In this document: positions 2,553 through 61,993 of the stretch, piece by piece
Position numbering within the stretch: the stretch's first letter is position 1
Layout of the letters: each line of letters begins with the position of its first letter
DNA from: a virus
Taxonomy: Duplodnaviria > Caudoviricetes
Virus record (IMG/VR): IMGVR_UViG_3300014641_000001
Coordinates: 1 to 64,000 of that record
Length of the DNA: 64,000 bases
Reading direction: 5' to 3' (one strand)
The notes under the pieces: generated by a model
The model's input: the letters and a program-made list of their open reading frames with translations, nothing else
The model's database searches: none
Told to the model about the DNA's origin: nothing
Translations under genes and position numbers: made by a program

Positions 2553-5177
2553 ATAGAACATACACAATATACACTTGTAAAGATACCGATTAGTTTACTT
2601 ATAAAACAGCATTTTAATATTAACATTGATAGAGCATCCGAAATAAATAATGAATATTTGATAAAACAAGGCGATTCCCCTTTATTTGACCAAATAGAAA
2701 AACTTCGCGGAAGATGCTCTACTCATGCAAGTGAGATAATTCTTGTAGTAGCAAAGAAAAATCCCAGGCAAGAATCTGCTTTACGGCAAATATTAAATAC
2801 TGGATTTACATACAACGGGATTCACTATACACGTTTTGGGAAATCCGCATCTCAGGGAAAAGATGGAATAACCGCTTTTGTATGTGATGATATATTTGAT
2901 GAGTTATACATGATAACTCAAATGGATGTTGAGATTTCAGAATGCGTTATTTCTAAATATGAATCACAAAGGTGCTTACTTTTTAGTTCATGTACTCTTA
3001 TTAAGGGTTATATGCCCAAAATTGTTATAGTTGATGAGTATGAAAAAACAATCAAGAATCAATGGATAAAATATGTGGTAGAAAAAGAAAAGGAATTTAC
3101 TGATAAAGAGACCGGGGAAATTAAGAAATATAATTCCAGGGAAATTGAGGAGGGATATAAAGATATCAAGATTTCTCCGTTTGATGGCTGTGGTTGTCAC
3201 GAAAAAGAGTTTATGGAAAAGGTGAGTTCTCAGATTGGTTTAGACTACAATGCTGTTGGTTCGCAGGTAAGAATTCCATTTATGAAGGGGTATTCAGTAT
3301 ATGTTCCATTCAGAGATATTTTCAGAGAGTGGGGATATGAATACATAACTGATATATACGGCAAAAGGCATCATATAGATGAGATTGACTGTATTTGGAA
3401 CACTTCTATGTTTAAAGGACACAAGATATTTAAAGAAAAGTACGGTAACGAAGCATGGAATGAATATATAAAAACCGCCAACAAGTATGGTTTTTGCTTA
3501 GGTATAAGTAAATACAGTCACCATATTAAACACTTAAACAAATATACTCGCATGAATTTTCAATATTTACAGTGTTTGGATTTGTGGAATAAAAAATACA
3601 TGGACCACTATAACGGTGAGAGCAATGATATCTACGATATTTTAGATGAAAACAATGATGGAAGGATAATTAAGCTAGCTAAGTATACGACTGAATTATT
3701 TGAAAAAATCATAAAGGGAGAAAAGTTTTATACTTATAAATTCATGGGTATAAACGACACTGAAAATTATGAGCCAGAAAGCAAATATCTTGAAGCTGCA
3801 CTGATAAATGATGTTATGCTAAAAGATCCGGCAGTAAAGCAATTTATCTATCGCAAGTTAAAAAAGTCTATTGATGAGATGAAAGTTGGAAAAATATACT
3901 GCTCAGGCTTTTATCATACTGGAGTTGGTGATATGTTTGGATATTTGCAATATGTCGTTGGTGAAGAGCCTGTTGGCTGCTTAGGTGCAAGAGAACTATA
4001 TAGTGGCAATTTTGCTATCGGAGATTGTGTGTCGTTTAGATCTCCTTTGGTTGATTCTTCAGAGGTCAATAAAGCTAAAATTGTGCAGAACGACATTACT
4101 TCAAAATGGTTTAGCCATTTTAAAGATCAAGATGTGGTCATGTTTAATATGAATGACATTTCTTTACCTCAACAGGGGGGTGCCGATATGGATGGGGACA
4201 TTTTCCTACTGAGTAAAGATGAAATCCTTGTATCTTCTAAAATCGAAAAACCAATAATCTTAGACATAGAGGATAAGGTGACTGCGAAACCAAAACCATA
4301 TACGAAAGAGAATATCATTGAATATGAGGTTATGACAAGAGACAATCGTATTGGGGAAATTACTAATGTGGCCACAAGTATTGAAAATAGATATGCTATA
4401 AACGATGATGTAAAGAAATTGTACTCTGACTACTCATCTCTTCTAAGGGTGTTTCAAGGCAAAGAAATCGACTTCATTAAAACCGGATTTAGATGGCATA
4501 TGAACAATGGACTCCGAAAGTATATGAAACAATTGCCATACTTTTTACTCTTTAATTATCCTAAGAAAATGAAATCATTTCTATCTTTATGTGAGAAAAA
4601 TAAGCATATAGAAAAGAAAGAAGACAAGTTAAAGTTAAATGCTTACCACTCTCCGTCTCCTATGAATGAACTGTGTGATTATGTTTGTACTTGGGAAAAG
4701 AAAAATATTTTGTGGGATAGTAATATTAATAATCTGGTTGATACCAGATGTTTAATCATAGATAACGACTTAGATTTATCTGATAAGAGAGTGATGAGAA
4801 TTTGTAGAAAATACATCAACGACTATGCCAGCGAGATTAAGAGGCATATAAATCTTAGAGATAATTCAGGTAATGATCATGATTGTTTTTCTATGGATTT
4901 TCTAATTGATGATTTCAAAGCAAGAATCTCAAGGGATCTAGGATTCAGCGATGACCTGACAGCTAATTACATAATCAAGGTATCTTACGGAAGTCTCTCC
5001 ATTAGTAAGTCGCTTGCTTGGTCGGCATATGGGGACTATATTATTCAGAATCTTAAAAGCAACACCAATCCAAAAAGAAATATTTCTATAAGGGAGGTTC
5101 CTTATAAAACAAACGATTCATATGAGTATCTTGGTAAATATTACGAGTTTGAGGTAGGTGATACATATATACGATAG
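2553..5177 (+). CDS. YonO-like single-subunit RNA polymerase (RdRP-like double-psi-barrel family)
   Basis: Catalytic 'GGADMDGD' motif plus 'FRSP' and 'DGCG'; size and position upstream of virion genes match SPbeta. The frame is open from 2538 and SD GAGGTGG precedes ATA at 2553 (track start is TTG 2658). Confidence 0.85.
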   Translation: MEHTQYTLVKIPISLLIKQHFNINIDRASEINNEYLIKQGDSPLFDQIEKLRGRCSTHASEIILVVAKKNPRQESALRQILNTGFTYNGIHYTRFGKSASQGKDGITAFVCDDIFDELYMITQMDVEISECVISKYESQRCLLFSSCTLIKGYMPKIVIVDEYEKTIKNQWIKYVVEKEKEFTDKETGEIKKYNSREIEEGYKDIKISPFDGCGCHEKEFMEKVSSQIGLDYNAVGSQVRIPFMKGYSVYVPFRDIFREWGYEYITDIYGKRHHIDEIDCIWNTSMFKGHKIFKEKYGNEAWNEYIKTANKYGFCLGISKYSHHIKHLNKYTRMNFQYLQCLDLWNKKYMDHYNGESNDIYDILDENNDGRIIKLAKYTTELFEKIIKGEKFYTYKFMGINDTENYEPESKYLEAALINDVMLKDPAVKQFIYRKLKKSIDEMKVGKIYCSGFYHTGVGDMFGYLQYVVGEEPVGCLGARELYSGNFAIGDCVSFRSPLVDSSEVNKAKIVQNDITSKWFSHFKDQDVVMFNMNDISLPQQGGADMDGDIFLLSKDEILVSSKIEKPIILDIEDKVTAKPKPYTKENIIEYEVMTRDNRIGEITNVATSIENRYAINDDVKKLYSDYSSLLRVFQGKEIDFIKTGFRWHMNNGLRKYMKQLPYFLLFNYPKKMKSFLSLCEKNKHIEKKEDKLKLNAYHSPSPMNELCDYVCTWEKKNILWDSNINNLVDTRCLIIDNDLDLSDKRVMRICRKYINDYASEIKRHINLRDNSGNDHDCFSMDFLIDDFKARISRDLGFSDDLTANYIIKVSYGSLSISKSLAWSAYGDYIIQNLKSNTNPKRNISIREVPYKTNDSYEYLGKYYEFEVGDTYIR

Positions 5178-16549: not shown

Positions 16550-16582
16550 GAGAGTCGTCTTTTAATTAAGGCGGCTCTTTTT
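16550..16582 (+). terminator. Intrinsic terminator
   Basis: AGAGTCGTCTT/AAGGCGGCTCT followed by a T tract. Confidence 0.65.
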
Positions 16583-16587
16583 GTATT

Positions 16588-16672
16588 GTTTGCGTGGTCG
16601 AGAGGCTTATGACATCTGTCTTGAAAACAGAAGTGTTGAAAGGCACCGTGGGTTCAAATCCTACCGCAAACG
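16588..16672 (+). tRNA. tRNA-Ser(UGA)
   Basis: Acceptor GTTTGCG/CGCAAAC, loop CT-TGA-AA, long variable arm. Confidence 0.9.
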
Positions 16673-16744
16673 TTATTTTATTGCAAAGAGTTGGTTAGAA
16701 ATAATCAGCTCTTTTCCGTGTGTAAATAGAGAATTAAATTATAT

Positions 16745-16816
16745 GCCGATGTAGCACAATGGCTGTGCAGCTCACTTGTAATGAGAAGGTTGTTGGTTCA
16801 AATCCAATCGTCGGCT
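16745..16816 (+). tRNA. tRNA-Thr(UGU)
   Basis: Acceptor GCCGATG/CGTCGGC, anticodon arm CTCA-CTTGTAA-TGAG. Confidence 0.9.
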
Positions 16817-16928: not shown

Positions 16929-18233
16929 ATGGCAAGAAAGAAAACACAAGAGGAATTTGAACGAGAAGTACAAAAAGTAAATCCTCATATTGAAATAAGT
17001 GGGGTATACCTGAATGGAAATTCAAAAATTCAATGCAAATGCAAGAAATGCAATAATGAATGGACTTCAACGGCACGAAATTTAATTAAGAAAACACAAT
17101 GTCTTAATTGTTTTCATAAAGAAAGGATATTTATATATCCAAACATACCCCATAATGAATTTATAGAGATTGTTAATAATAGCTATCCCAATTTGATTAT
17201 TACGGGTACATATGATCCAAATAAAAAATTAATTACATGCAAATGCACTAAATGTAATTGCGTTTCTAGGGTAAGAACACAGATGCTACTGGAGAGTACA
17301 TACGAGTGCCGTATTTGTAAAAATGGGAAAGAGAATATTAAGATCGGAATAAATGATATAAAAAGTATAAACCCTGTCATGTACGAAATGCTACAAGATA
17401 AGGGAGTTAATGAAAAACATTCGATAAATAGTCGCTCAAAAGCAGATTTTATATGTCCGTCGTGTGGCGCTACAATAAAGTCAAAAACCATAGATAAAGT
17501 AAATAGACTGGGGCTGAAATGTAAGTGTCAAGATGGCAATAGTCTTGGTGAAAAATACTTTTTTAATGTTATTCAGAGTGTCAGTAATAATGTTGAAAGT
17601 GAAAAATATCTAAATAACAATTTGTCATATAGATATGATTTTTATGGCGTAGAAAAAGGAATATCTTGGATTTGCGAAATTCAAGGAAAACAACATTACG
17701 GAAAAACTTTTGAGACATGTGGAGGACGGACTTTAATAGAAGAACAGTTAAACGATAAATTAAAAAAGGAATATGCTATTTCACAAGGTATTCATATTTA
17801 TGTAGAAATCGATTCTAAAGAGAGCGGTCTGAATCAATTAAAAGCGGCTATATTGAACAGTAAATTAACAGATATATTTTGTTTCAAAAATGTTGATTGG
17901 ATTTCATGTTATAAAAATGCATTGATTTCAGATGTCTTAGAAGTATGCAGATTATGGAATTCTGGATATAAGGTGATGCAAATTAGTAACATAACAAGAT
18001 ACAACAAAGGAAAGGTTAGGAGTTGTTTAATTAAAGGCAATTCTATCGGAATGTGCAAATATGACAATACGGTAAGTAACAAGATTAAAGTGCAGTGCGT
18101 TGACACAGGTGAAATATTTAATTCCCTTAGAGAAGCTGAAATAAAACATGGAATTAAACGTGGTAATTTGTCTGCTTACTTAAAGGGGTTGAATCTTCAA
18201 GTAGACAATAAAAAATGGAAATATGTATCATAA
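16929..18233 (+). CDS. Free-standing homing endonuclease-like protein (Zn ribbons, PD-(D/E)XK/EDxHD-like core, NUMOD-like tail)
   Basis: Multiple CxxC; 'YRYDFY...EIQGKQHY'; C-terminal 'VQCVDTGEIFNSLREA'. Confidence 0.75.
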   Translation: MARKKTQEEFEREVQKVNPHIEISGVYLNGNSKIQCKCKKCNNEWTSTARNLIKKTQCLNCFHKERIFIYPNIPHNEFIEIVNNSYPNLIITGTYDPNKKLITCKCTKCNCVSRVRTQMLLESTYECRICKNGKENIKIGINDIKSINPVMYEMLQDKGVNEKHSINSRSKADFICPSCGATIKSKTIDKVNRLGLKCKCQDGNSLGEKYFFNVIQSVSNNVESEKYLNNNLSYRYDFYGVEKGISWICEIQGKQHYGKTFETCGGRTLIEEQLNDKLKKEYAISQGIHIYVEIDSKESGLNQLKAAILNSKLTDIFCFKNVDWISCYKNALISDVLEVCRLWNSGYKVMQISNITRYNKGKVRSCLIKGNSIGMCKYDNTVSNKIKVQCVDTGEIFNSLREAEIKHGIKRGNLSAYLKGLNLQVDNKKWKYVS

Positions 18234-35682: not shown

Positions 35683-35780
35683 AATCTCCACCATATTATA
35701 GTCAACATTTATTTATTAACCCACTCTCCTTTCACACAAGGGGAGTTTTTTATTGTGTAAATTTTTGAGAGGAGAATTAT

Positions 35781-37153
35781 ATGGCTGATTTTAGAACTCT
35801 CGTAGAACTTATATTTGATAAAGCAAAAGCGAGAAATGAATTAAATAGCATTTTAAAGGAATTACAAAAAGACGCCAATTTAAAAACGGAAATAAAAGTC
35901 GGTACTTCTGAAGCAAAGAAGGCAAAAAAGGATTTAAATGAAACCGCTTCAGCAATTGGGAAGATTGTAACTGAATCTAGGCAGTTGTCAAAAGTTAATA
36001 CAATTAAGACATGGGCTGACAACAACACTAAAGCCATGAAGATGTTTGGTGATCAGATTCAGGACATCATCACCAAAATGGGAAAGGCTAATCTTTCGCT
36101 GTCTGATTTTAAAGGTCTAGATGCCGATTTTAATAGGATTAAAATAGCGTCCAGAGATATGAATTTACTTGGTAAGACCTGGGGTGATTCGTTTAAGGCA
36201 GACGCAAGCAAATTTGCTTCATGGTTGCTTCCTTCTGGCGGAATCATGACTGCCATTAGTGGACTGCGTAAAATGAAGGATTCTATCGTTGATATAGATA
36301 CAGCCATGACTAATCTATATAAGGTGTCCGATGAAACAGACTCAAAATATAGACAGTTTCTTCAAAGTTCAAATATAGAAGCCCAGAGACTTGGGAGAAC
36401 AGTATCCAGTCTCATTGAGCAAACTGCAACTTGGAAAAAACTTGGTTTTACCACTGATGAGTCAAGTGAATTGGCGAAAATATCATCAATTTATGCTAAC
36501 GTAGGTGAAGTGTCTGATGACACTGCTGTTTCGGATTTAGTGACAGCAATGAAAGCCTTTAACATTGCAGGATCAGACAGTATAACAATTGTAGATTCGC
36601 TTAACAAATTGGGTAACGAATTTGCTACCGATGCTGCCTCTCTCGGAGAAGGACTAAAAAACTCCGCATCTTCTCTTCGTCTTGCAGGAAACGATATAGA
36701 TCAGACTCTTGCTATGCTAACAGGTGGTACAGAAATTATTCAGAATGCAGGAGAAATGGGAAATGCTCTGAAAATACTGAGTATGAGAATACGAGGTATG
36801 AAAGGCGAGCTGGAAGCACTCGGAGAAGAATATGACAATGTGGAGTCAATATCAAAAATCCAAACCCAGATCTTGAATCGTACTGGCGGTACAGTAAATA
36901 TATTTGACAATAATGGAAACTTCAAGTCTACGTATGAGATACTAAAGGGAATATCAGAAGTATGGGATAAAATTTCTCAAACCGACCAGGCCGACCTTTT
37001 AGAAGTTATCGCGGGTAAACAGCGCGGTAACAGCGTTGCAGCTTTAATTCAATCATTCCAATCTGGGCAAGTGCAAAAGGCATTAGAGGCTTCAATGAAC
37101 TCTGCTGGATCAGCTTATGAAGAACAGAGCAAATGGATGGAATCAATTGAGGC
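35781..37153 (+). CDS. Tape measure protein, exon 1
   Basis: TP901-like TMP core ('DTAMTNLYKVSDET', 'IVDSLNKLGNEFA', 'GNALKILSMRIRG', 'IAGKQRGN'); reading continues only if spliced after GAG GC. Confidence 0.88.
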
Positions 37154-37562
37154 AGACTTTTGCCTCGTTGCGTAGAAATATGTAACATTAATATATTTAA
37201 TTGCAGGTAATGCCTTAGAGCCTTACACCACAATATAGGGGAAACCACTATATGATGGTTTTACAACGTAAGGATTGGCTGTTCATGCAGCGAAGCACCC
37301 TAACGTATTCCGTAGACCATACGGTACTTTAGTCGAGGGTGAACGTTCAACGACTAGATTCATGTCGAGATTTGGACTAGAGAATAAGGGTGGAAATCCC
37401 GAATATCCAGATCAATAATCGTAGGGCGCAAATCGCAAATGGCGTGGGTGAAATTCCCTTAAATCGAAAAGGTATACTCTCAGCACGTAGTGGTGGAGAT
37501 GAAGAAATAGTCTAGTCTCATATGAAAATATGAGTTGATTGTTATTATAAAAAAGGAGTTTG

Positions 37563-37697
37563 AATGAAAAAATTCGTCAAAGAATATTCAACTCAATTAA
37601 CCCCATTAAAGGAGTATTTGGAGAAGGAATTAAATCCTCTTTCGCAAAAGTGATCTAAGGAGTAACTACATATAAGTACACAAATTCTGGAGAGTAA
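37563..37697 (+). pseudogene. Degenerate paralog of the 30829 gene, inside intron 1
   Basis: AAGGAG SD; 'MKKFVKEYSTQL...KGIKSSFAKVI*GVTTYKY' with frameshift and stop. Confidence 0.5.
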
Positions 37698-37761
37698 TTT
37701 ATATTACTCTCCTATTTTTATACAAGTAAATAGATAATTAAAGGAGAATAAACGTGGATAA

Positions 37762-39198
37762 ATGAACAAAAAATATAATCAAGAGAAGGCAATAGAAATT
37801 ATGCAGTCATACGGATATAAACTTGACGACATATATAAATCATATAACCATAAACTAAGAATAGTTGATAATGATGGATATATCTATTATAGAAGCCTTG
37901 GTGACATATTATCAAATAAAACACCCACGAAATTTGGTCGTGGGAATCCATTTACAATTGAGAATATTAAAAATTACACTTATCAAAATAATATACAAAC
38001 ACAATTGCTGTCTGAATCTTTTACTGAATCTAGTGGTTTATTATTATGGAAGTGTAGTTGTGGCAAATCATATACATGCTCGTGGAATGCATTTGAAAAC
38101 GATAAACATTTATGCAATGATTGCTCGATTAAAGACAGAGGACTTAAGCAAAGAATCAACAAGGCTAATGTAATTGATAAGGTTAAAAGTATGGGCTATC
38201 ATATTGTTGAAATTGCTGATGATATATGTGTTTTCGACAGCATAAAAATATCAGACGATTTAGGATATAAATATTATCCAGTAATAAATAATATCATATA
38301 CGATAAAAGACCTTTTAGGTTTCATAAATCAAATATTTTTTCAATCGATAATGTAAATAACTATTTTAGGCTAATTGGAGAAACTGATTATACATGCGTT
38401 AGCAATGAATATATTGACAATACCTCTGACTTGGAAATATTACATAAAAAATGCGGAACGGTATTTAATGCCAAACTCACTAAACTAACTGACAAAGGAG
38501 TTAGTTATTGCAATATGTGTCCAAAATGTAAAACGACTAAAACCGAATCGGTTCACGCATCAGTTCTGAAACAAGTATTTCTAAATAAACATCCTGATTC
38601 TGTATTAGAGGATAAATCTTGCATAAACTCAAAGACAGGCTACTCGCTCCCTACTGATATCGTTAATCACAGATTAAAATTGGCAATAGAAATACAAAGT
38701 TCTCTACATGATAATAGAAAGGATATTGATCTGTATAAAAAGAATTTCTGGATTGATAGAGGGTATGATTTTTATTCTCCCGATATTAGAGATTATTCTA
38801 TATTGGGTATGATACAATTATTTTTTAAAGATATCGAATCAATACCAAAATATATAGATTATAACTTTTCGAATTGTGTGGATTTCATCGAAATACAAAA
38901 CATGATTGATTCGGGGCATACGATTATTGAGATAGCTAGTATTAAGAATATCTCAGAAGCTACAATAAGGGGGCTCGTCACTGACAAAAAGGTAATCTTG
39001 CCTCCCGACTATAAAAATAAAATATTTAAAATAAAACCCATATTAAGGCTTGATGTTAAGGGAAATGTAATTAAAAGATATGAATCGTTAAGTTCTATAT
39101 CAAGAGATGGATTCGCCACAGGTACCATTAGAAGAGTATTAAAAGGTAAACAAAAGTTGTCGTATGGAACGAAATGGATTTATGACATAAAAAAATAA
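37762..39198 (+). CDS. Intron-encoded homing endonuclease (Zn motifs, PD-(D/E)XK-like core, NUMOD1-like tail)
   Basis: 'PTDIVN...AIEIQSSLHD'; CSC/CNDC/CPKC; C-terminal 'DVKGNVIKRYESL...GTKWIY'. Confidence 0.78.
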   Translation: MNKKYNQEKAIEIMQSYGYKLDDIYKSYNHKLRIVDNDGYIYYRSLGDILSNKTPTKFGRGNPFTIENIKNYTYQNNIQTQLLSESFTESSGLLLWKCSCGKSYTCSWNAFENDKHLCNDCSIKDRGLKQRINKANVIDKVKSMGYHIVEIADDICVFDSIKISDDLGYKYYPVINNIIYDKRPFRFHKSNIFSIDNVNNYFRLIGETDYTCVSNEYIDNTSDLEILHKKCGTVFNAKLTKLTDKGVSYCNMCPKCKTTKTESVHASVLKQVFLNKHPDSVLEDKSCINSKTGYSLPTDIVNHRLKLAIEIQSSLHDNRKDIDLYKKNFWIDRGYDFYSPDIRDYSILGMIQLFFKDIESIPKYIDYNFSNCVDFIEIQNMIDSGHTIIEIASIKNISEATIRGLVTDKKVILPPDYKNKIFKIKPILRLDVKGNVIKRYESLSSISRDGFATGTIRRVLKGKQKLSYGTKWIYDIKK

Positions 39199-39244
39199 AA
39201 ATAACAATCAAAGAATGGTATTGCGAACCATTCTAAATATATCG

Positions 39245-39434
39245 AAAAACACAACAGTATGAAGCTTCATTTCAATCACTATCACAAACTATTATTAATT
39301 CAAATTTCTTAAAGTTTCTTATAGATTCTGGTACGACATTTAATAATGTATTAGATAAGACAATAAACGGCTTTGGTGTTTTGTCTACTACGCTTTCCGG
39401 TGCTGGTATAGCGGCATTCATTAAAAACTACGGT
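39245..39434 (+). CDS. Tape measure protein, exon 2 (not in ORF track)
   Basis: No start codon; reads (A)KTQQYEASFQSLSQTIINSNFLKFLIDSG...GIAAFIKNYG, in frame with exons 1 and 3. Confidence 0.82.
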
Positions 39435-40079
39435 TAACTCTGTAATAAGAGTTACGCTTAAATTTCCGAGGGATTTAAGTTGGCCTATCATGGGGAAGAA
39501 TATATCATAATGGCGATATAAACAATTCCATGGGACGAAAGTTTTAAAATAAAAAGAGGATTAATTGCTTGAAAGTGTAATGCTCACTACTCTTCTATTT
39601 TAGAAGAAACCGAAAAATAAGGTAAATAAGTCAAACGGTTTACACACCGGAGTGAGATTTCTAGGGATAAAAAATAATTCCCGACAGATGTACAATCACC
39701 AACGAAGCAGCTAGCCCTATCTGTGTATCACGATGTATAATCCGATGGTAACAATTGCGCAAGCAATGTCGGGATAAGATCATTAATGATAGGGAGTGTT
39801 CAGAGAGCACCACTCCTCACAGTACATGAAAGCCATATTTCATTGTGCTGTTAACGCATGTTCCAAAGTGTACACGATATCAACGCTTCACGAGGCGCTG
39901 GATATTATAATGTTGTAAAAGATATGGGCTACAGCCTATCATTGAGCGTAATATGGAAAAGTTAATCGTTTCTATGTTATGTATCAAAATAGTTATGTAG
40001 ATTCTCCCATATTTTTAAATAAAGTATTTATTCTCCTTTTTATATGATTGAATACTAATATAATGTACCATCCTATATA

Positions 40080-40283
40080 TTGTTTGAATATAATACAATA
40101 AATCAAATGGAGATGTATAGAAATATGACGAAAAAAATTATTAATTTGACCGAAGAAGGCGAAGCTCTAGGATATCCAAAAACTCCAGATTCTGAGATGA
40201 TAGAGATGGGTATATTTGATGGAAAGATAATCAATTTTATAAAAGTAATGTTTATAAAGATAGTTAAAATGATGAAAAGGTAG
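40080..40283 (+). CDS. Small hypothetical protein (intron 2 cargo)
   Basis: GGAG SD suggests a later start (about 40124); ends at a hairpin. Confidence 0.4.
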   Translation: MFEYNTINQMEMYRNMTKKIINLTEEGEALGYPKTPDSEMIEMGIFDGKIINFIKVMFIKIVKMMKR

Positions 40284-40296
40284 TCAATAGACTACC

Positions 40297-40458
40297 TTAT
40301 TCCTCGTTCTTTTTATTTTTGTCGTTATCATTAACATGTTTAATTTCTGAGAACATCTCTACCACATATTCTGGTCTAGGCGTACTTGGATACTGTTCTC
40401 CTTTTTCATTGGTGTTATTAGTACTTGTCATCTTGATAACATTTTCATCGTCTGACAT
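40297..40458 (-). CDS. Small hypothetical protein, 53 aa (intron 2 cargo, not in track)
   Basis: GGAGGAG SD; 'MSDDENVIKMTS...KKNEE'; overlaps the end of the upstream membrane gene. Confidence 0.6.
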   Translation of the reverse strand: MSDDENVIKMTSTNNTNEKGEQYPSTPRPEYVVEMFSEIKHVNDNDKNKKNEE

Positions 40459-41023
40459 TTATTTCTCCTCCTTCTATATGAATATTTTGTATATTATTAT
40501 TTATAAATTTGGTCTCATAGTAATCAATACCGACACCGAATGTATACGATAAAATAGATACTGCGAAAGTGATGCATATGAAATAACTCAACGATTTATG
40601 TTTCATGTTCTTTGTAATGTTCACATTTCTATTATGAATGGCTTCATTAATAAAACATTCACAGAGCATATTATTTACATGTATATCTGCTTTTTTAATA
40701 TGCTTTTTATCTGTCATTTGATATGTTTGTGAGATCGCAACAGCCATATCTTTAATTGGGAAATAACTCATTTTATAGCCAGAGTATGCTTTATAAAACT
40801 TGTGCAAGCAAATTATAAATAAAATCGTTGACAAAGCGCAAAATATCAAGTAAACAATAGTACACCATGATAAAGAAAAACGAACAAATTGTGACCAAAG
40901 TAATATTTGTGCACTACCAAGTATTGTAAGAAACGTAATACAAGTATTAATTTTATTACTTAATCTATCGGAATATTCTATCTCCTTATAATATAAATCT
41001 TTGTATTCTTCAAGCAATTCCAT
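40445..41023 (-). CDS. Three-TM membrane protein (intron 2 cargo)
   Basis: AAGGAG SD; three hydrophobic segments. Confidence 0.75.
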   Translation of the reverse strand: MELLEEYKDLYYKEIEYSDRLSNKINTCITFLTILGSAQILLWSQFVRFSLSWCTIVYLIFCALSTILFIICLHKFYKAYSGYKMSYFPIKDMAVAISQTYQMTDKKHIKKADIHVNNMLCECFINEAIHNRNVNITKNMKHKSLSYFICITFAVSILSYTFGVGIDYYETKFINNNIQNIHIEGGEINVRR

Positions 41024-41309
41024 ATGATGATGTTCTCCTTTGTATCATATGGAATATTTTACCATCGTCAATACAATAAAACAAGAAACAGATGTTTGTC
41101 GATGAGGATATAAAATCGACATATTTCGACATTTATAATATTGAGTTAGTCATTAAGCTGTATATTAAAATAACATAAGCTGAACCCCTCTTTTATACTA
41201 CAATCTTGCGTCTTACTAGCTTCATTGTTTTCAAAATTTTTATACCTATCTGGAAATTTCTTCCACTCCATGATATAATAATTTTTAAAAGAGATACAGG
41301 AGGGATTGT

Positions 41310-41900
41310 ATGAAAAGGTTGGTTTTAGGGTTGTTATGTATCACTGTATGTTTACAATTAAGTGCTTGTGATAAAAACACGTCGGTCACCACAAGTAAAG
41401 AAAAAGAAACAATAACAGAATCATCAAATTTATCTGAAGATGAACAGAAAGCAGAATTAAATGCGATCTATCAAGAAATTGACGAAGCAAATAAATACTG
41501 TAATGATTTGGCAAAACTATTATATGACTATTGGGACAACCGTGAATATGAAGCGTTTTTTGACCACAGTGTTTTTTTGGAAAGAGATAAAAAATATAAT
41601 ACATACGGGAATTATAATAGTGGTAGTTTTTATGGCGATGCAAAGACCTGCTATGAATATCGTGATAAAATTGAAAAAAATATGGAAGATGCACGTCAAA
41701 GATTGAAAGAATTAGAGGTGTCTGAAAGTGTACAGGGGTATTATGATTCTGTAAAGAAGTTGTATTTGAATGTCGATGCATATCATAGTTTTGCATCTGA
41801 TTTCCCAGAAGGTTATTCAAAAATTACATATTCTCAAACATTTAGTAAACATCAATCAGAATACGACTCTTTAATAAGTGAATTAAAGTTTGAGCAGTAG
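41310..41900 (+). CDS. Lipoprotein (intron 2 cargo)
   Basis: Signal peptide with lipobox 'LSAC'; promoter TGGAAA-17-TATAAT with extended TG; own terminator. Confidence 0.8.
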   Translation: MKRLVLGLLCITVCLQLSACDKNTSVTTSKEKETITESSNLSEDEQKAELNAIYQEIDEANKYCNDLAKLLYDYWDNREYEAFFDHSVFLERDKKYNTYGNYNSGSFYGDAKTCYEYRDKIEKNMEDARQRLKELEVSESVQGYYDSVKKLYLNVDAYHSFASDFPEGYSKITYSQTFSKHQSEYDSLISELKFEQ

Positions 41901-41969
41901 TATATAAAAAGTTTGCTGACAGTATTAGTATATTCTAATAAATTATTTTTAGATATGATCACAAAATTT

Positions 41970-41998
41970 AGAGCCAGTTATTTGACTAGCTCTTTTTT
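41970..41998 (+). terminator. Intrinsic terminator inside intron 2, between convergent genes
   Basis: AGAGCCAGTT/GACTAGCTCT followed by T tract. Confidence 0.7.
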
Positions 41999-42063
41999 GT
42001 ATATAAAAGGGAGCAAAAATGCACTATCATATACGCTACAATTTTTCGATTTACTAATATCAA

Positions 42064-42489
42064 TCAAAACTTACTTCCACAGTTATTACACTTCCAAGTC
42101 TTACCGTTATCTCCCATGCCGAAAATTCCAAATGCAGCTATCTTTGCGACCTTTTTTGTTGCGGATATTTTAGAGAGGTTTGTGCTGCTACATGTGGGGC
42201 ACTTTGGAACATTTTGATGTGTACCTTTTGGAATGTATCCGGCTAAAAGACGAGTATCGCTTCCGGTAGTGGGTAAATCTTCTCTTGTGATTAAATCTGT
42301 GTCGGAAACATTCCCACAACAACATGTAATTAGAATTCCATCTTTTAACTTGCAATAATCTGAATTTACTCTATCAAATTTGTCATCTATTCCCTCTTTT
42401 ACAAATATTGTATTCCCGCATTTTTCGCAGAGTATTTCTATTTCTATTGGTGATCCATTCTCGTTATTAATAGCTTTTTTTAAATACAT
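42064..42489 (-). CDS. Zn-ribbon protein (intron 2 cargo)
   Basis: GGGAGGG SD before ATG 42489; CEKC, 'PKCPTCSSTN..KIS...K.WKCNNCG.KF'. Confidence 0.78.
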   Translation of the reverse strand: MYLKKAINNENGSPIEIEILCEKCGNTIFVKEGIDDKFDRVNSDYCKLKDGILITCCCGNVSDTDLITREDLPTTGSDTRLLAGYIPKGTHQNVPKCPTCSSTNLSKISATKKVAKIAAFGIFGMGDNGKTWKCNNCGSKF

Positions 42490-42518
42490 AGTTCCCTCCC
42501 TATACATATTTTATTATG

Positions 42519-45500
42519 CAACTGCAATCCCTCGGAAAGTCGATTGTGAACTTTAATAGCATTATAGCATCTGGGACAGGAACAAATCAATCTTTTGCGA
42601 AAGTTTTAGAAGGGATTAGCACACAGGAAAAAATCAATTTAGTAACTAGAAGCAGTCTAACCGATGCTCAAAAGATTGGTATTCTTGCAACAGCTGGTTT
42701 AAGTGCAGAGGAATTGAAAGCAGTAGCTTCCACTACTACTCTCTCCACTTCACAGACCACTGCAACAGCAACTACAACTGGATTCGGTACTGCCCTTAAA
42801 GGTCTTTGGGCAACCATGATGGCAAATCCTTTAATTGCAATAGGAATGGCCGTAACAGCTATCTCAACAGCATGGAATATTTATAATCAGTCCATCGAAA
42901 AAACAAGACAAGCTTCGGCCGATGCGGCGGGCGCATTAAACGAAACCACCTCATCAATTAATGATTATGCTGAAAAGTATAAAAAATTACACGATGAACT
43001 TGTCAAGGCAAATACTACCGAAGAACGTCAACATGAAATAAAAAGTGACCTTCTTGCGCTTCAACAAGAATTAAATGATAAGTACGGAGATGAATATGGC
43101 AAATTAAATCTTGTTACAGATGCTTATAATGATCAAACCGATGCAATCCTAGCAAGAAACAAAGCCGCGGCGCAGAATTATCTTCTTGAAAATAGAAAAG
43201 GTATAGCCGATGCTACAAAACAAATGGAACAAGACCGCACTTATACACTTGGTAGCACTGGTAATTTATCAAACGACTATGCAAAAGAAATATATAATAT
43301 AGCGTCAAAATATTCAGACCAGGGCATAAAATTAGAGTCTCTTAAAAATAACGGAGTAGATGCCTATACTATTAAGTTTTATGGAAATGCAGAAAATGCA
43401 GAAAAAGTTATACGTAGCCTCTCCAATGAGATCCAAGATCTTGGGCATAAATACGAAGATAATAATTTCATCAATGGATTCTTAGATAACTCAACAAATG
43501 CACTTAAAGAGAATCAAAAAACATTAGATAAATATGATGAAATATATAACTCTGCATTGATGTCTCAAATTGCAACTGACAATGAATTGTCGGGAGGTTA
43601 CGAGAAGGCCACAAGTGCCGTTAAAGCATATAACGATGCACTAATTTCTGGTGACGAATCTAAAATATTATCGACAAGAGATGACCTCAATGAAGTTAAA
43701 AATTCCATTGATTTAACAAGCGAAAACTGGAAACGATACGGGAATGTAATGACTGATATTTTCAGCCAGGCAAACACAGGGCTATACGATTTCAGAGATG
43801 CACTCTCTTCAAACAACGATAATATCAAAGACTATGCTAAAAGTCTAAAAGGTTTATCAAAGACAGATGTAATGTCCATGGCAAATGATGGGCAAGATGA
43901 TAACTTTGATAAAATAGTTAAATCTGCTGATAAATATGGATTAAGCGTTAACCAGGTCATCGATGAACTAATCAGATTGAAATACGTTCAAGATGATATC
44001 TTCAAGTCTGGTGAAGCAACATTCACTCCTCTCTCCAAACAAGAAGTAATTTCAAACATCAATTCACTGTCCGAAGGTTTTGAATCCCTTGATAAAATTA
44101 TGAAGAGCATATCCGACAAAGACAATCCATTTGACTATGCTCTGCTTGATGATGGTAAGTTTACGAAGATATTCAGCACCCTAAATGATGGTGGTGAAGC
44201 TTACGCTAACTTCATCGAAAAAGTGTCGTCATCACCCAAAGATATAAAAGCTACTCAAAGTGCATTTAACGATCTGGTAACAACTTGGATTGATAGCTCT
44301 GGTGTATTAGATGGGCTTACCGAAGACAATGCTAACCTTGCTACTGCTATGCTTCAGAATATGGGTGTTGCTAATGCCGAAGAAGTTGTAATGACAAGAC
44401 TTTCCATTGTACAGGAACACCTGGCAGCGCAAAAAGCTTATACGGCAGAAATGAGTGACGCTCTCGCCAATGCTACAGCTAGTGAAATTCCAGGAATCAT
44501 AGAAGAAGCAACTCAAAGTGACATAGCTAAAGTTGCACTGGCTGGTCTGGTATTAGAGAAAGAATTCTTCAATGGAAATGCACTAGATACTAGTGGTGAC
44601 ATTGAGAATATTATCTCTCTTGTTGGAGTAATTGGAACTGCTAATACGGCACTCAAAGCTTTAAATACTTTAAAGGCCGGAGGTAGTGTTGGTGGCAACA
44701 TAGGCGGAAAAGAAGGTTATGAAGCTCTTGTAAGAAATGCAGAAAAGGAAGCCGAAGACGCAATAAAATCTGCTTCCGAATATAAAGGCAAGGGAGCAAA
44801 TATTAATGCATCGTATACAGGTGGTACAAAAACAAATAAACCATCTGGCTCTAAAAAGGATAAAAAAGATTTCTCAGAAGTATTTGACTGGGTAGAAACT
44901 ACAATTAAACGAGTAGACGAAAAGATCCAAGACATCCAGAGTAAAATTTCTGATACATCAAACTGGAAGCCTAAAAACACTCTTACAGATACAGCTATTG
45001 ATGAAATGGCAAATAAAATAACTGCCTTACAGTCTCAGTTAGATACATACCAGAAGAAGGCAGATTCTTACAACCTCTCTCCCACTTACATAGACAAAAT
45101 CAAAAATGGCACTCTTGAAATTGAAACTGTTACTGATGAAGTAATTGCAAACAATATCAAAGGTTATCAAGAATGGTATAACAAAGCTGAAGATGTTCGC
45201 AAGAAGATAGATGAAACAAAAAAGACTTTGAAAGAACTTGCTCAGACCAAACTTGAAAATATTATCAATGATTTTGATAGTCTTGTTTCGTTAATGGATA
45301 AGTACGCTTCATATAGTAATAATCTTTTAAATCTACAAAAGGAATTGGGCGAATCTATTACCAATACAGATTATGAACGGTTAATTAATCAACAGGAAGC
45401 AATTTATAAGCAGTTGCATAGTAAGTATAATTCGCTATCCAATGAATTATCTAAAGCGGTAAGTAAAGGAACAATTGAGGTGGGTTCAAATGAATGGCGT

Positions 45501-47333
45501 AAATACAACGAGGAATTAATTGCTGTAAATTCCTCTATGAATGATGCTGTTTCTTCAATGAACGATTTCAGAAAAGCACTAATCAACTTGCCATTTGAGG
45601 AGCTAGAGAGGATTTCTAGTGCACTCGATGGAATTAACAATGGAATCAACACCATGTCTGATCTAATTGGCGACGATGGACTTTTAGACGGAGGAATGCT
45701 TACATCTAAGGGTCTTGCTAAAATTGCTCTATTAGGACAACAGTATGCTAATGCTAAACAACAAGCGGCCGATTACGAAGAAGCCATTAATGCTATTAAT
45801 GAGATGTATGAAAATGGTTCTCTCACACAGGCCGAGTATAACGAAAAACTCAATGAATATACCAACGCTCAATTATCAGCAGTAAAAGCTACGAAAGAAG
45901 CCGAACAAGCTATCTTGCAGTTTAGATATAATGCAATCCAGGCACAGATAGATGATATGAATAATTTAATTGCTGCCAAGAAGAAAGCATTGCAGACTGA
46001 AAAGGACTATCAGGATTATCTTGAAAGTATTAGCGAGAAACAGACTGACATTAATAATTTACAGGCAAAGATTGATGAACTGTCACTGTCTACCGATAGG
46101 AAAGATATTGCACAGAGATTACAGTTAGAACAGCAGCTATCAGATGCAAAGAAAGATTTGGCTAAGACACAAGCTGACTATGCTTATGATAAAACTATTG
46201 AAAGCCTAGATAAGCAGGAAGAGGACTATCAGGACGCAAAGAAAAAAGAGCTTGATGAACTTAAGTCAAATACTGATGCACAGAAGAAGGTAATAGAAGA
46301 ATATCTCGGACAGGTAAAAGATAACTACAAAACAGTCTACAATACCCTGACTAAGTATGGAACCGATTATAATGTTACCATGACTAGCGAACTAACTTCT
46401 CCATGGGAGTCAGCTAATAGCGCCGTGTCTACATTTAAAGACGCTGTGTCAGAAGCTATCTCACAGATTAATATTGACATTGCTAATATTGATTTGTCAA
46501 AGCTTACAGAATTAGTGAGTACAATGCAAGGATTCTCCGCAGGTGGAAATAATTCGGCTTCATTTGAGGATATTACCGGTTCCGGAACGTGGCAAAAGAA
46601 CTCTAGGGGCTGGTGGTACGGAGCTTCTAATGATGATTACGCTTCTGATGGAATCTACACCATTGGAGGTAAGCAGTATAGCTTCAACGAAGATGGCTAT
46701 ATGAAAACTGGTTGGGACGATAGCAATGGTGATTGGCGGTATTTTGAGCCTGAGAATGGTCAGATGGTTAAATCTGCATGGAGAAAGTCTAAAGATGGTA
46801 AAGACTACTATCTGAAATCTGATGGTACTATGGCTACAGACATGGCTATCAAAGCGAAAGACGGCAACGGGTATTATTATATTGATGACAGTGGTGTATG
46901 GGACGGAAAAACAATATCCTATGATGATGTGAAAAAGAGAAATATCACTGTTGGATATAAAAGTGGCACTACTAATTCTAAGCCAGGATTAAAATATGTT
47001 AACGAAGATGGGCCAGAATTGATTGTTGCTAAAAATGGTACTGTTCTCAATTCAGTAGGTGGCGATACCATCTTTACAAAGAATATGACTGATAAGCTAT
47101 GGGATTTTGCTATTGATCCAAGTAAGTTTGTGTTGGCTAATATGCCGAAGTATGATTATAGGGCAATGGCTATGGCTAATCGAAACAACGTTTCTATGAA
47201 TATCGATAGCCCACTACTTGTAGTACAGGGTAACGCAGATAAAGAAGTATTAACTCAAATGAATGAAAGACTAGATACTTTCATTAACAAGGAAATACCT
47301 CAGAAAATGATGGAAATGTCAAAACAACATTAA
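42519..47333 (+). CDS. Tape measure protein, exon 3, with C-terminal cell-wall-binding repeats
   Basis: Long coiled coil; 'ANPLIAIG'; 'VNEDGPEL'; no SD before ATG 42516. Confidence 0.88.
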   Translation, partial: QLQSLGKSIVNFNSIIASGTGTNQSFAKVLEGISTQEKINLVTRSSLTDAQKIGILATAGLSAEELKAVASTTTLSTSQTTATATTTGFGTALKGLWATMMANPLIAIGMAVTAISTAWNIYNQSIEKTRQASADAAGALNETTSSINDYAEKYKKLHDELVKANTTEERQHEIKSDLLALQQELNDKYGDEYGKLNLVTDAYNDQTDAILARNKAAAQNYLLENRKGIADATKQMEQDRTYTLGSTGNLSNDYAKEIYNIASKYSDQGIKLESLKNNGVDAYTIKFYGNAENAEKVIRSLSNEIQDLGHKYEDNNFINGFLDNSTNALKENQKTLDKYDEIYNSALMSQIATDNELSGGYEKATSAVKAYNDALISGDESKILSTRDDLNEVKNSIDLTSENWKRYGNVMTDIFSQANTGLYDFRDALSSNNDNIKDYAKSLKGLSKTDVMSMANDGQDDNFDKIVKSADKYGLSVNQVIDELIRLKYVQDDIFKSGEATFTPLSKQEVISNINSLSEGFESLDKIMKSISDKDNPFDYALLDDGKFTKIFSTLNDGGEAYANFIEKVSSSPKDIKATQSAFNDLVTTWIDSSGVLDGLTEDNANLATAMLQNMGVANAEEVVMTRLSIVQEHLAAQKAYTAEMSDALANATASEIPGIIEEATQSDIAKVALAGLVLEKEFFNGNALDTSGDIENIISLVGVIGTANTALKALNTLKAGGSVGGNIGGKEGYEALVRNAEKEAEDAIKSASEYKGKGANINASYTGGTKTNKPSGSKKDKKDFSEVFDWVETTIKRVDEKIQDIQSKISDTSNWKPKNTLTDTAIDEMANKITALQSQLDTYQKKADSYNLSPTYIDKIKNGTLEIETVTDEVIANNIKGYQEWYNKAEDVRKKIDETKKTLKELAQTKLENIINDFDSLVSLMDKYASYSNNLLNLQKELGESITNTDYERLINQQEAIYKQLHSKYNSLSNELSKAVSKGTIEVGSNEWRKYNEELIAVNSSMNDAVSSMNDFRKALINLPFEELERISSALDGINNGINTMSDLIGDDGLLDGGMLTSKGLAKIALLGQQYANAKQQAADYEEAINAINEMYENGSLTQAEYNEKLNEYTNAQLSAVKATKEAEQAILQFRYNAIQAQIDDMNNLIAAKKKALQTEKDYQDYLESISEKQTDINNLQAKIDELSLSTDRKDIAQRLQLEQQLSDAKKDLAKTQADYAYDKTIESLDKQEEDYQDAKKKELDELKSNTDAQKKVIEEYLGQVKDNYKTVYNTLTKYGTDYNVTMTSELTSPWESANSAVSTFKDAVSEAISQINIDIANIDLSKLTELVSTMQGFSAGGNNSASFEDITGSGTWQKNSRGWWYGASNDDYASDGIYTIGGKQYSFNEDGYMKTGWDDSNGDWRYFEPENGQMVKSAWRKSKDGKDYYLKSDGTMATDMAIKAKDGNGYYYIDDSGVWDGKTISYDDVKKRNITVGYKSGTTNSKPGLKYVNEDGPELIVAKNGTVLNSVGGDTIFTKNMTDKLWDFAIDPSKFVLANMPKYDYRAMAMANRNNVSMNIDSPLLVVQGNADKEVLTQMNERLDTFINKEIPQKMMEMSKQH

Positions 47334-47337
47334 ATGT

Positions 47338-47365
47338 AGAGAGCATCTTAACTGATGCTCTCTTT
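47338..47365 (+). terminator. Intrinsic terminator
   Basis: AGAGAGCATC/GATGCTCTCT followed by TTT. Confidence 0.7.
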
Positions 47366-51925: not shown

Positions 51926-52000
51926 GAATCTATTCAAGAGTAGGACTAATCTCCTACTCTTTATTATTATTAAAATTGAATTTAGGAGGAATTTTTCAAT

Positions 52001-60067: not shown

Positions 60068-61993
60068 TTAACCTATCTCCCTCATTCTATCCATTTCAAA
60101 CCAATCTCTTTTTACAAACTCTGATTTTCTTTCTTTGGAATATGTTTTTTCAGGAGTTAAGAATCCAACGATTCTTTGCCATGTAGTTTCAACCGGTTCC
60201 CCACAGTATGGGCATATTGTTCCGTAAAATCCGTGATTATTTTTACATGTACTAATTCTCAAACAGAAAGCAAAATAAACCACACCTTGATCTGCGACAT
60301 AATTTAGCATATCCCAGGCTGTATCAAAGTTCTCCAATGGAGCGTCTAAATTAATATGTGCTATACTTCCACCTGAACAAGCCTTATCAAGAATAGCACT
60401 AAGTCTTATTTTCTCCTGCAATGTAGTTTTCACGCCAAGTGGAATCCACTGGTTGCCATATAGGGGGAGTTCATATGCTTCATCTGGATAAAAGAATCTA
60501 TCTTTTTCCATAAGAATCGCTGCCGCTCTCTCAGCAGGTATTTCTTCAATATTTATCTGATAGTCTTTATTAGTCCCAAAATCATTCTTTGTATCTGTAA
60601 TCATTTTCAGAATGTCTTTTGCAAACTCGATGCCATCGGTAGAGTAGAATGTGTTGCTAAACTCGTCTTTATTGGTATATCCAAACTTCTGTAAGGCTTC
60701 ATAAACACCAATGATGCCAATTGTGTTATATTGAGACTCTATAGACATTACATCTTTTGAATAATTTGGTAACAATCCTTTCTTTATATTTCTTTCAATA
60801 ATACCCCTTACACAATCAAGAGCCTGAAGGTTAAGAATCACTAAATCCTTCAATGCACCTAAATAGTCTTCTTTTGTACTATTTTCATATGCAATCCTAG
60901 CAAGGTTTATAGTATTTACCTTAATGCTACCTACTTCTAGAGCCGTACCTCCTATCGAATTAAAATAACCTAGGTTCTTAACATCGCTAATCAGACGACA
61001 GCAGTTGCTTAATGAGGTAATATCATCGCTTACAAAAAAGTTACTGTCAGCCCACTTCATATTATGTTTACAACACCACTTAGCGAAATCTTCGTCTACA
61101 AACTTTCCATCTTTACGGAGCAACGAATAAGAAAGTACCGGAAAAGTCATCATGTTCTTACTTCTAACTTCGCTTACCACTTCCATAAAACTCTTCTGGT
61201 ACTCAATCAGTTCATCAATATAGTCAATAATAAATGTGCCGTCTGGGAATTCTTTGCCGCCATATAAAGATTCCATATATGGATGATCAAAGATAGAGAA
61301 ATTCGTAAACGCCGACTGATTTACTCTCAAATATGGCTGATTTAATTTGTAGATAATCCTTTGGAATTCTTGATCCCGGTATCTTTCTGGTGTGCCGGTA
61401 TAATAACCATCTTCTACATCCTTTTTCCAGAAATAAAATGAGTAAATTAAGAAGCTAGGTAGTCCACAAGCTCCTGATGTTCTATTGCTTGTCCAGCTTA
61501 CAAATTCACCGACAAAATCAGTATATGTAACTAAGTGTTTTGGAGGCTGAGCGTTAAAGTTGTCAATAAAATATAGACCTTTCTTCACCAAGCGTTCAAT
61601 ATCATAAGCAAAGCAATATGGTTTCATTGTGGAGCTAGCAGCATCATGTAAATAAAAATGTCCGTCCCACTCAGCTTTCAACCATTCATTTGCCGTCTTG
61701 AATCCATATTTCTTATTTAACTCGTAGTAGATCTTGTTGAACGCAAGCAACTTTGAGTGAGGTTTATTCATTTCTGCCTCTAGAGAACAGATATCTTTTG
61801 TCCCAGCATTAGCATTACCATCTATACTTGCATCTGCCACAGTCTGTTTATCTACGAAATTGTCAATGAAATCAGTATAGCTAAGTTGAGCCTCTGAAAA
61901 TCCATTCAGTCTTGCCATTTCTTCTCCATACTCATTAAGCATTTTATTAAATGCCGTGGTAAAATTTTTATTCAGTTTGATATTAATGTCCAT
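60068..61993 (-). CDS. nrdD: Class III ribonucleotide reductase, no ATP cone
   Basis: 'YLHD', 'PYC', 'SNCCRL', 'IPAE', glycyl-radical loop 'RIVGFL'. Confidence 0.92.
   Translation of the reverse strand: MDINIKLNKNFTTAFNKMLNEYGEEMARLNGFSEAQLSYTDFIDNFVDKQTVADASIDGNANAGTKDICSLEAEMNKPHSKLLAFNKIYYELNKKYGFKTANEWLKAEWDGHFYLHDAASSTMKPYCFAYDIERLVKKGLYFIDNFNAQPPKHLVTYTDFVGEFVSWTSNRTSGACGLPSFLIYSFYFWKKDVEDGYYTGTPERYRDQEFQRIIYKLNQPYLRVNQSAFTNFSIFDHPYMESLYGGKEFPDGTFIIDYIDELIEYQKSFMEVVSEVRSKNMMTFPVLSYSLLRKDGKFVDEDFAKWCCKHNMKWADSNFFVSDDITSLSNCCRLISDVKNLGYFNSIGGTALEVGSIKVNTINLARIAYENSTKEDYLGALKDLVILNLQALDCVRGIIERNIKKGLLPNYSKDVMSIESQYNTIGIIGVYEALQKFGYTNKDEFSNTFYSTDGIEFAKDILKMITDTKNDFGTNKDYQINIEEIPAERAAAILMEKDRFFYPDEAYELPLYGNQWIPLGVKTTLQEKIRLSAILDKACSGGSIAHINLDAPLENFDTAWDMLNYVADQGVVYFAFCLRISTCKNNHGFYGTICPYCGEPVETTWQRIVGFLTPEKTYSKERKSEFVKRDWFEMDRMREIG

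Follow-up and report, generated by a model that had tools for sequence, protein, structure and literature searches.

Accessory-gene cassettes with terminator-like hairpins inside two introns of a phage tape-measure gene, with cis read-through as the favored account

Phage group I introns are normally compact, with one endonuclease gene at most. In Bacillus cereus-group prophages, group I introns occur in the tape-measure gene (TMP-IVS1, 2, 3a, and 3b), and some of them contain HNH or GIY-YIG genes (PMC2504315). In the IStrons CdISt1 and BcISt1, a group I ribozyme at the 5' end is followed by foreign genes, which occupy up to ~2 kb between the last core helix and the 3' splice site; for BcISt1, splicing out of the whole element has been demonstrated in vivo (PMC4227781). 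A Didymium intron is known to carry an endonuclease gene in antisense orientation that has a promoter of its own (PMC3073962). The embedded endonuclease genes of phage T4 have their own promoters and hairpins, and the intrinsic terminators of mobE and segF stop part of the read-through (PMC2988022). In organelles, trans-spliced group I introns have been described for Isoetes cox1 (PMC2731911) and Prasinoderma rnl (PMC3873408), whose halves are encoded apart and transcribed separately. In phage SPbeta, 37 late genes form one operon with a single start, which the RNA polymerase YonO transcribes with little pausing (PMC5467207). Here, we analyzed a 64,000-nucleotide (nt) stretch of a Caudoviricetes virus (positions 1 to 64,000 of IMG/VR record IMGVR_UViG_3300014641_000001; hereafter the window), in which the tape-measure gene is interrupted by two introns that contain hairpins followed by T-tracts. 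The best explanation for these hairpins is that they are the intrinsic terminators of accessory-gene cassettes carried inside two self-splicing introns, and we consider it probable that the late transcript passes them in cis.

We compared the locus with each of these systems. Intron 1 is of the ordinary kind found at several sites in the prophage tape-measure genes; the TMP-IVS introns carry at most an endonuclease gene, whereas internal terminators, antisense genes, and multi-gene cargo are undescribed there (PMC2504315). Like an IStron, intron 2 places its ribozyme first and its cargo ahead of the 3' splice site. However, IStron cargo is IS200/IS605 or IS607, with both open reading frames (ORFs) forward and an enclosing inverted-repeat stem after P9.2. 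The cargo of intron 2 is variable and non-transposon. It has promoters of its own, genes on the minus strand, and bidirectional terminators, and in place of an enclosing stem there is a 20-bp guide for exon 3. The hairpin at 37689, which precedes the HNH gene of intron 1, resembles the internal terminators of T4 mobE and segF. The T4 terminators lie in free-standing genes, where a downstream promoter rescues the next gene, whereas those of the window lie between the ribozyme core and the 3' splice site, so that any termination destroys the message. As in SPbeta, the late genes form a one-directional cluster downstream of a YonO homologue and have sense-strand hairpins between them, including on both flanks of the tape-measure gene, but the SPbeta tape-measure gene yomI is uninterrupted and the known introns of SPbeta are in its ribonucleotide reductase genes. 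As in the organelle introns, two RNA pieces could pair to rebuild a splicing-competent complex; here, however, a single strand encodes the pieces in collinear order, a second promoter was not seen, and it is guide and exon that pair rather than two intron halves. What is new relative to these systems is the multi-gene cargo on both strands with terminators, together with a 20-bp P10.

The tape-measure gene is divided into three exons on the plus strand. Exon 1 (35781-37153; PF10145, phrog_4211) is collinear with amino acids (aa) 2-460 of the uninterrupted homologues P0001-P0003 and P0006, exon 2 (39245-39434, 63 codons) matches aa 456-526 of P0002, and exon 3 (42519-47333) is collinear with aa 533-2093 of P0002. 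The three exons align to uninterrupted homologues of 2124-2289 aa with neither loss nor overlap at both junctions, and phrog_4211 spans exon 1 and exon 3 with a gap of the size of exon 2. When the 11.7-kb region was compared with the phage collection at the nucleotide level, no match was obtained. A degenerate pattern of the exon 2-exon 3 junction had eight matches among metagenome contigs, all of them unrelated and due to chance, and neither an intron-less allele nor a spliced copy was found. Exon 3 as an independent gene was rejected for the family: no Shine-Dalgarno sequence is present, and the relatives have ATG, TTG, TCG, ACG, or TAG as the codon ahead of the splice site. It is very improbable that the locus is a dead gene in a decaying prophage that makes no tape-measure protein. 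The record is estimated to be 61% complete and intron 1 contains a truncated small ORF, but all three exons are open over ~2125 codons in sum and collinear with their homologues, the same intron is found with intact exons in 14 loci of differing cargo, and guide and exon co-evolve, as described below. Toward its C-terminus, the tape-measure protein has choline-binding repeats (PF19127, PF19085; 46650-46900, or aa 1379-1462 in the exon 3 ORF), and so do the uninterrupted homologues.

Intron 1 (37154-39244, plus strand, 2091 nt) is a group I intron whose core, P1-P9, lies at 37144-37534. When 37130-37570 was searched alone, it matched the full Rfam model RF00028 (positions 1-253) with 56.2 bits (gathering score 50; E 9.7e-14); Rfam searches of 8 kb and of the whole 64-kb window detected neither intron. 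An in-frame stop (37173-37175) is present inside the intron. Its removal, with G39244 as the terminal G, restores the frame, and the resulting ...WMESIEA/KTQQYEASFQ... matches P0001-P0003 and P0006. The last exon position is not U in this intron, and the sole frame-keeping join with G39244 sets C37153 opposite G37162. A C instead of U at the 5' splice site is a rare exception that is on record (PMC4227781). The intron encodes an HNH homing-endonuclease-like protein of 478 aa (37762-39198, plus strand; phrog_559, E 1.8e-19). Upstream of this gene, the hairpin and T-tract at 37689-37719 follow a remnant ORF of 29 aa (37565-37653), and the hairpin ends 50 nt before the HNH gene. In locus L021, the corresponding homologous sequence remains coding, and the hairpin it forms is only weak.

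The 3' end of intron 1 forms a terminal hairpin (39212-39234, plus strand; dG -9.1 kcal/mol, the unit of all energies below), the loop of which, UUGCGA (39221-39226), complements UCGCAA in a loop of the core (37433-37438). This hairpin is kept in L021 and L025, with covarying stems, and in the ORF-less relative in L011 (12459-12689), the corresponding hairpin and core loops read UUACGA and UUGUAA. Sequences closely related to the intron 1 ribozyme, with 81-89% identity, were observed in other phages, in L021 (7962-10000), L025 (8097-10000), and L011 (12192-12689), at other positions of the tape-measure gene; insertion points of this type in relatives correspond to about aa 254 and aa 410 of P0002. 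The intron is absent from L001, L015, and L016. The presence of relatives at other sites and the lack of intron 1 in these three loci fit a mobile family of introns that changes its target site within a single gene.

Intron 2 (39435-42518, plus strand, 3084 nt) has its ribozyme at ~39435-39910, followed by cargo up to the 3' splice site. We compared it with its family of 14 related loci, which come from Lachnospiraceae genomes and IMG/VR phages. The ~475 nt directly after the 5' splice site are conserved in the 14 loci, whereas the intron beyond this core varies from 0.4 to 6 kb between loci. In a 12-sequence alignment, the helix set was 97.5% paired, compared with 38-45% for slid partners, and contained 38 compensatory pairs, compared with 2-10 in the slid controls. 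The last exon base is a U opposite G in P1 in 12 of 12 sequences, and this U(-1) is kept in all loci. The neighboring P1 pair (columns 26:79) is three-state, being AU, CG, and GC in four sequences each. The internal guide GGCC (39482-39485) pairs with GGU (39432-39434) at the end of exon 2, and a G precedes the start of exon 3 in 13 of 13 loci. A P3-P9 core with P4-P6 and a P3/P7 pseudoknot may be present, as helices that we named by our own assignment occur in the expected order with P/Q/R-like motifs. Because of the covarying core, the U.G pair found at the 5' splice site, the three-state guide pair, and the terminal G, we classify intron 2 as group I-like. A group II intron was rejected, as a GUGYG start and a domain V are both lacking and Rfam gave no group II match. 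The related loci L017, L023, and L024 have no intron. We accept both introns as being of the self-splicing type, as judged from sequence, and splicing is expected to follow. With the ribozyme cores at the 5' ends and the hairpins placed between each core and its 3' splice site, making the tape-measure protein takes either read-through or the joining of separate RNAs. The first-pass annotation had drawn this same dichotomy, which stands with real introns, 5' cores, and hairpins between.

The 3' splice site of intron 2 is matched by a long putative guide. Positions 39463-39482 on the plus strand, directly 5' of the internal guide, are complementary at 18 of 20 positions to the first 20 nt of exon 3 (42519-42538); this complementarity is inverted repeat I6, and guide and internal guide together span 39463-39485. 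The duplex between this guide, which we call extended P10, and exon 3 has an energy of -27.9, compared with a mean of -9 for other exon 3 windows. Extended P10 is conserved in 13 of the 14 loci, with energies of -23 to -31 and with 21 unbroken pairs in L018 and L047. The guides are clade-specific, as evidenced by comparing energies with exons of the same clade (-21 to -31) and with those of others (-6 to -13). Compensatory changes were found at exon 3 positions +3, +12, +15, and +18. They include G.U pairs, which are valid only on plus-strand RNA. An extended guide for the 5' exon was also sought, and none scored above controls. Part of the exon 3 guide forms the loop and 3' arm of a local hairpin (39459-39479), so exon 3 must displace that hairpin. 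We speculate that exon 3 binding opens it and thereby licenses the first splicing step, the ribozyme waiting for its distant 3' exon. The 20-bp guide accounts for the capture of a remote 3' splice site and would also permit trans-splicing.

The first-pass annotation had proposed a pairing between 39986-40000 and 42500-42512, which proved to be at chance level: its energy is -4.5, and other 15-mers of the intron reach -8.8 with the same 3' segment. When the last 45 nt of the intron were compared with the first 700 nt, none of the 14 loci beat the shuffled controls (17-84 of 100 shuffles were equal or better). An inverted-repeat stem enclosing the cargo in the manner of an IStron was rejected, since no stem exceeded the shuffles in the 14 loci. 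Excision of the cargo at the DNA level via flanking direct repeats was rejected as well, the repeats being just short, AT-rich, and due to chance.

We then considered the hairpins themselves, with an intrinsic terminator defined as a stable stem-loop with a U-tract directly after it on the transcribed strand. The hairpin at 37689-37712 on the plus strand has 10 bp, a dG of -14.3 (z -5.8), and the tail UAUUUUUAU. The hairpin at 41970-41993 has a dG of -10.8 with the tail UUUUUUG on the plus strand and a dG of -13.8 with the tail AAAUUUUG on the minus strand. Both had been described beforehand as plus-strand hairpins with T-tracts, and these values bear this out. The 9-bp hairpin at 40278-40298 is stable on both strands (dG -15.5 on the plus strand and -16.1 on the minus strand). 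On the plus strand, AUUCCUCGUUC, comprising 11 nt that are not U-rich, separates the stem from the U run; on the minus strand, the tail UUUCAUCAUUUU is U-rich right after the stem and serves the ORF at 40445-41023. Because AUUCCUCGUUC precedes the plus-strand U run, this element is a weak plus-strand terminator and a better minus-strand one; the hairpin noted earlier is real. Predicted terminators by the above definition are therefore present at 37689-37719 (plus), 41970-41998 (plus and minus), and 40278-40298 (minus), and not at 40278 on the plus strand. Between 33 and 50 kb, 16 terminator-like sites were counted, compared with 7.9 +/- 2.8 in shuffles.

The positions of the hairpins in intron 2 correspond to those of its cargo genes. 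The hairpin at 40278-40298 lies between two convergent ORFs without a recognized family, one of 67 aa (40080-40283, plus) and one of 192 aa (40445-41023, minus; promoter-like site at 41071-41044). The bidirectional hairpin at 41970-41998 lies between an ORF of 196 aa with a lipoprotein-signal-like N-terminus (41310-41900, plus; promoter-like site with an extended -10 at 41251-41279), also without a family, and a Zn-ribbon ORF of 147 aa (42064-42507, minus; weak matches to Zn-ribbon families). Since they lie between convergent genes with T-tracts for both strands, we regard the hairpins of intron 2 as the cargo cassettes' own terminators. Searches of the cargo with Pfam, PHROGs, NCBIfam, and PADLOC gave no function above threshold, and no transposase family was found in the cargo ORFs. 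The Zn-ribbon ORF starts 11 nt from the 3' splice site. The 3' piece of the intron, noted before as very short, is in fact only 11 nt free of cargo, from the start codon at 42507 to the splice site at 42518, and shows no conserved fold. A promoter-like site (TTGATT-18-TATAAT with TG; 42561-42590, minus), recognized from its consensus match alone, lies inside exon 3 just past the 20-nt guide target. It is the best candidate for the Zn-ribbon ORF, and a transcript from it would be antisense to the 3' splice site of intron 2.

A similar last gene is found throughout the family. In 12 of 13 related introns, the last cargo gene is a minus-strand ORF of 95-153 aa located 11-80 nt from the 3' splice site (for example, L006 14269-14673, L009 7865-8290, and L040 11347-11643), and in 12 of 13 a CPxC...CxxC C-terminal domain is conserved at the same place. 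The C-terminal motif reads NIPKCPTC.S....KIS ... FG..G ... C.NC, and neither a nuclease nor another family was recognized. The minimal intron of L040 (864 nt) consists of the core, the minus-strand ORF, and its terminator, with nothing else. This ORF may be the intron's original gene.

Across the family, plus-strand terminators were present in 10 of 14 introns. These introns have different cargo sets, the terminators are always 3' of plus-strand cargo genes, and the flanking exons are intact. The other four introns have the same layout without a plus-strand terminator, and their cargo is wholly on the minus strand. A near-identical terminator-like hairpin (AAGAGTAGGA..TCCTACTCTT) was also observed at 51936-51961 of the window, in L009 (6225-6254 and 7827-7856), and in L037 (14548-14571); it thus recurs in the window's late cluster and in the intron cargo of other phages. 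We weighed whether the hairpins are mainly elements of RNA stability or processing, which protect the 3' ends of cargo, endonuclease, and late mRNAs after cleavage or intron release. Like hairpins lie directly past the stop codons of many late genes, and the hairpin at 51936-51961 shares its motif with the cargo hairpins in L009 and L037. However, each intron 2 hairpin is placed exactly where two convergent genes meet and has T-tracts on both strands, the classic arrangement of a bidirectional terminator. We therefore consider a primarily stabilizing role to be quite improbable, although it is compatible with the hairpins being cassette terminators.

How transcription passes these sites is indicated by the surrounding late genes. 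The window encodes a YonO-type single-chain RNA polymerase of 839 aa (2658-5177, plus strand; phrog_8308), so that the YonO-like enzyme invoked by the first-pass annotation does have a homologue here. In tblastn searches, the product gave a match to SPBc2 yonO that extends over 95% of its length, with 24% identity (E 4e-12), and one to the RNA polymerase of a Thomasclavelia phage (E 1e-79). A YonO homologue followed downstream by a one-directional late structural cluster is the arrangement of a YonO-type late operon. We scanned the plus strand of this cluster (16.9-55.4 kb) for hairpins with one strict rule set and applied the same rules to SPbeta. In the window, 16 strict hairpin/T-tract sites were obtained, 13 of them intergenic and 10 outside the introns, usually just past a stop codon. 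Two of them flank the tape-measure gene: one at 35723-35746, 35 nt before its start (dG -10.8 to -11.4; tail UUUUUUAU), and one at 47339-47362, 6 nt past its stop (dG -14.7). The energies of the late-cluster hairpins outside the introns (-8.9 to -15.6) match those of the intronic ones (-8.6 to -13.1), whereas stronger hairpins (-19 to -24) stand at the end of the cluster. In the late operon of SPbeta, nine sense-strand sites were found, including both flanks of yomI, and they coincide with annotated stem-loops. YonO is without the flap domain needed for hairpin-dependent termination (PMC5467207).

Transcription of the tail genes must already pass many such hairpins, so the intronic ones are nothing special, and cis read-through is the simplest account. 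The YonO homologue and the hairpins of both late clusters thus strengthen the read-through side of the earlier dichotomy. The companion proposal, that the intron terminators restrict the tape-measure gene to the late programme, found no support: they look like ordinary cassette terminators, at least seven similar sites already lie upstream of the tape-measure gene, and the many hairpins elsewhere in the cluster weaken the idea of such confinement.

Read-through could also be a matter of leaky termination, in which the hairpins are weak and the host polymerase, with or without a phage antiterminator, passes them often enough. This would suffice, as few copies of the tape-measure protein are needed per virion. 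The internal terminator of T4 mobE halts ~30% of transcripts (PMC2988022). The intronic stems are AU-rich (4 G-C pairs) with interrupted T-tracts, and their energies (-8.6 to -14.3) are well below those of the cluster-end hairpins. Nevertheless, the cluster lies directly downstream of the YonO homologue, as in SPbeta, and more than 10 successive partial terminators would compound into severe polarity for the host polymerase. Furthermore, 2-3 kb of untranslated intron RNA would also be open to Rho, which weighs against passage by the host enzyme. We regard leaky termination as unlikely.

Joining in trans is the other way to a complete message. Late or host transcripts would end in the cargo, a separate exon 3 RNA from an internal start would be captured by the guide at 39463-39482, and exon 2 would be joined to exon 3 across two molecules. 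Several observations are consistent with this: the guide for exon 3 (~20 bp, -28) is far beyond a usual P10, the 3' exon alone has such a guide, plus-strand terminators recur in 10 of the 14 family members, and there is the precedent of natural trans-spliced group I introns in organelles (PMC2731911, PMC3873408). However, 41998-42518 contains three plus-strand sigma-A-like promoter sites, compared with 3.5 +/- 1.9 expected, although this consensus may not cover YonO. The 520 nt from the last plus-strand terminator to the splice site are occupied by the minus-strand ORF, the exons are collinear on one strand, and the four family members without a plus-strand terminator keep the same layout and guide. 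In addition, the remaining late cluster needs read-through regardless. Trans-splicing as the route to the tape-measure message is thus improbable. We are similarly doubtful, if slightly less so, about the narrower proposal that the 20-bp guide makes ligation independent of covalent continuity, such that the 5' half, with exons 1 and 2 and the ribozyme, could capture an exon 3 RNA of separate origin after a late transcript has ended or been cut in the cargo.

Several points weigh against our favored combination of two group I-type introns and cis read-through by the YonO-type polymerase. RF00028 gave no match to intron 2 at E values up to 10, even with 621 nt searched alone, and the P7 helix of this intron is conserved without compensatory change. 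The guide would have to hold exon 2 via 3 bp only while 2.6 kb of cargo is transcribed. The 20-bp exon 3 guide exceeds the usual need of cis-splicing. That YonO passes intrinsic terminators is something we infer from operon structure and missing domains. Finally, there may be internal late promoters used by the YonO-type enzyme.

With these reservations, the following sequence of events appears plausible for cis read-through. In the lysogen, the hairpins of intron 2, located between convergent genes with their own sigma-A-like promoters, would serve both strands and insulate cargo expression. In the lytic phase, the phage YonO-type polymerase would transcribe the late cluster, and with it the tape-measure gene, on the plus strand. 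By analogy with SPbeta, this enzyme would pass the intronic hairpins like the other late-gene hairpins and yield the full precursor in one piece. Each ribozyme core would be made first and would have to find its 3' splice site 1.7-2.6 kb further on. Intron 1 may do so via its 3'-terminal hairpin, the loop of which would pair with the core loop, and intron 2 via the 20-nt guide beside the internal guide, which would pair with the first 20 nt of exon 3. Splicing in cis would then restore a tape-measure protein of ~2125 aa.

Two other regions of the window were noted. A second HNH-type ORF (16929-18233; phrog_559, phrog_9084) lies upstream of the terminase gene and could be another homing element. 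It comes just after two tRNA genes (16588-16672 and 16745-16816) and plus-strand hairpins at 16550-16579 and 16688-16711. In addition, an NrdD-like ORF of 641 aa (60068-61993, minus) aligns with a 978-position profile at positions 1-340 only and, past that part, with a second family; this gene may be split or interrupted.

An essential structural gene here holds introns that contain whole transcription units, with promoters, minus-strand genes, and bidirectional terminators. Consequently, expression of the tape-measure gene would require both a polymerase indifferent to these terminators and an RNA device, either a 20-bp exon guide or a loop-loop tether, that reaches a splice site kilobases away. 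The terminators inside the introns turn out to be an ordinary property of cargo cassettes and, as our analysis suggests, of the late operon of this gut phage generally. If capture in trans were true, it would give phages and bacteria their first natural example of a trans-splicing group I intron. If cis read-through is confirmed, the locus would be a natural test bed for the behavior of YonO-type polymerases at terminators and would offer a natural long-guide ribozyme design, like those engineered for trans-splicing. It would also mean that introns can act as safe storage for changeable accessory genes.

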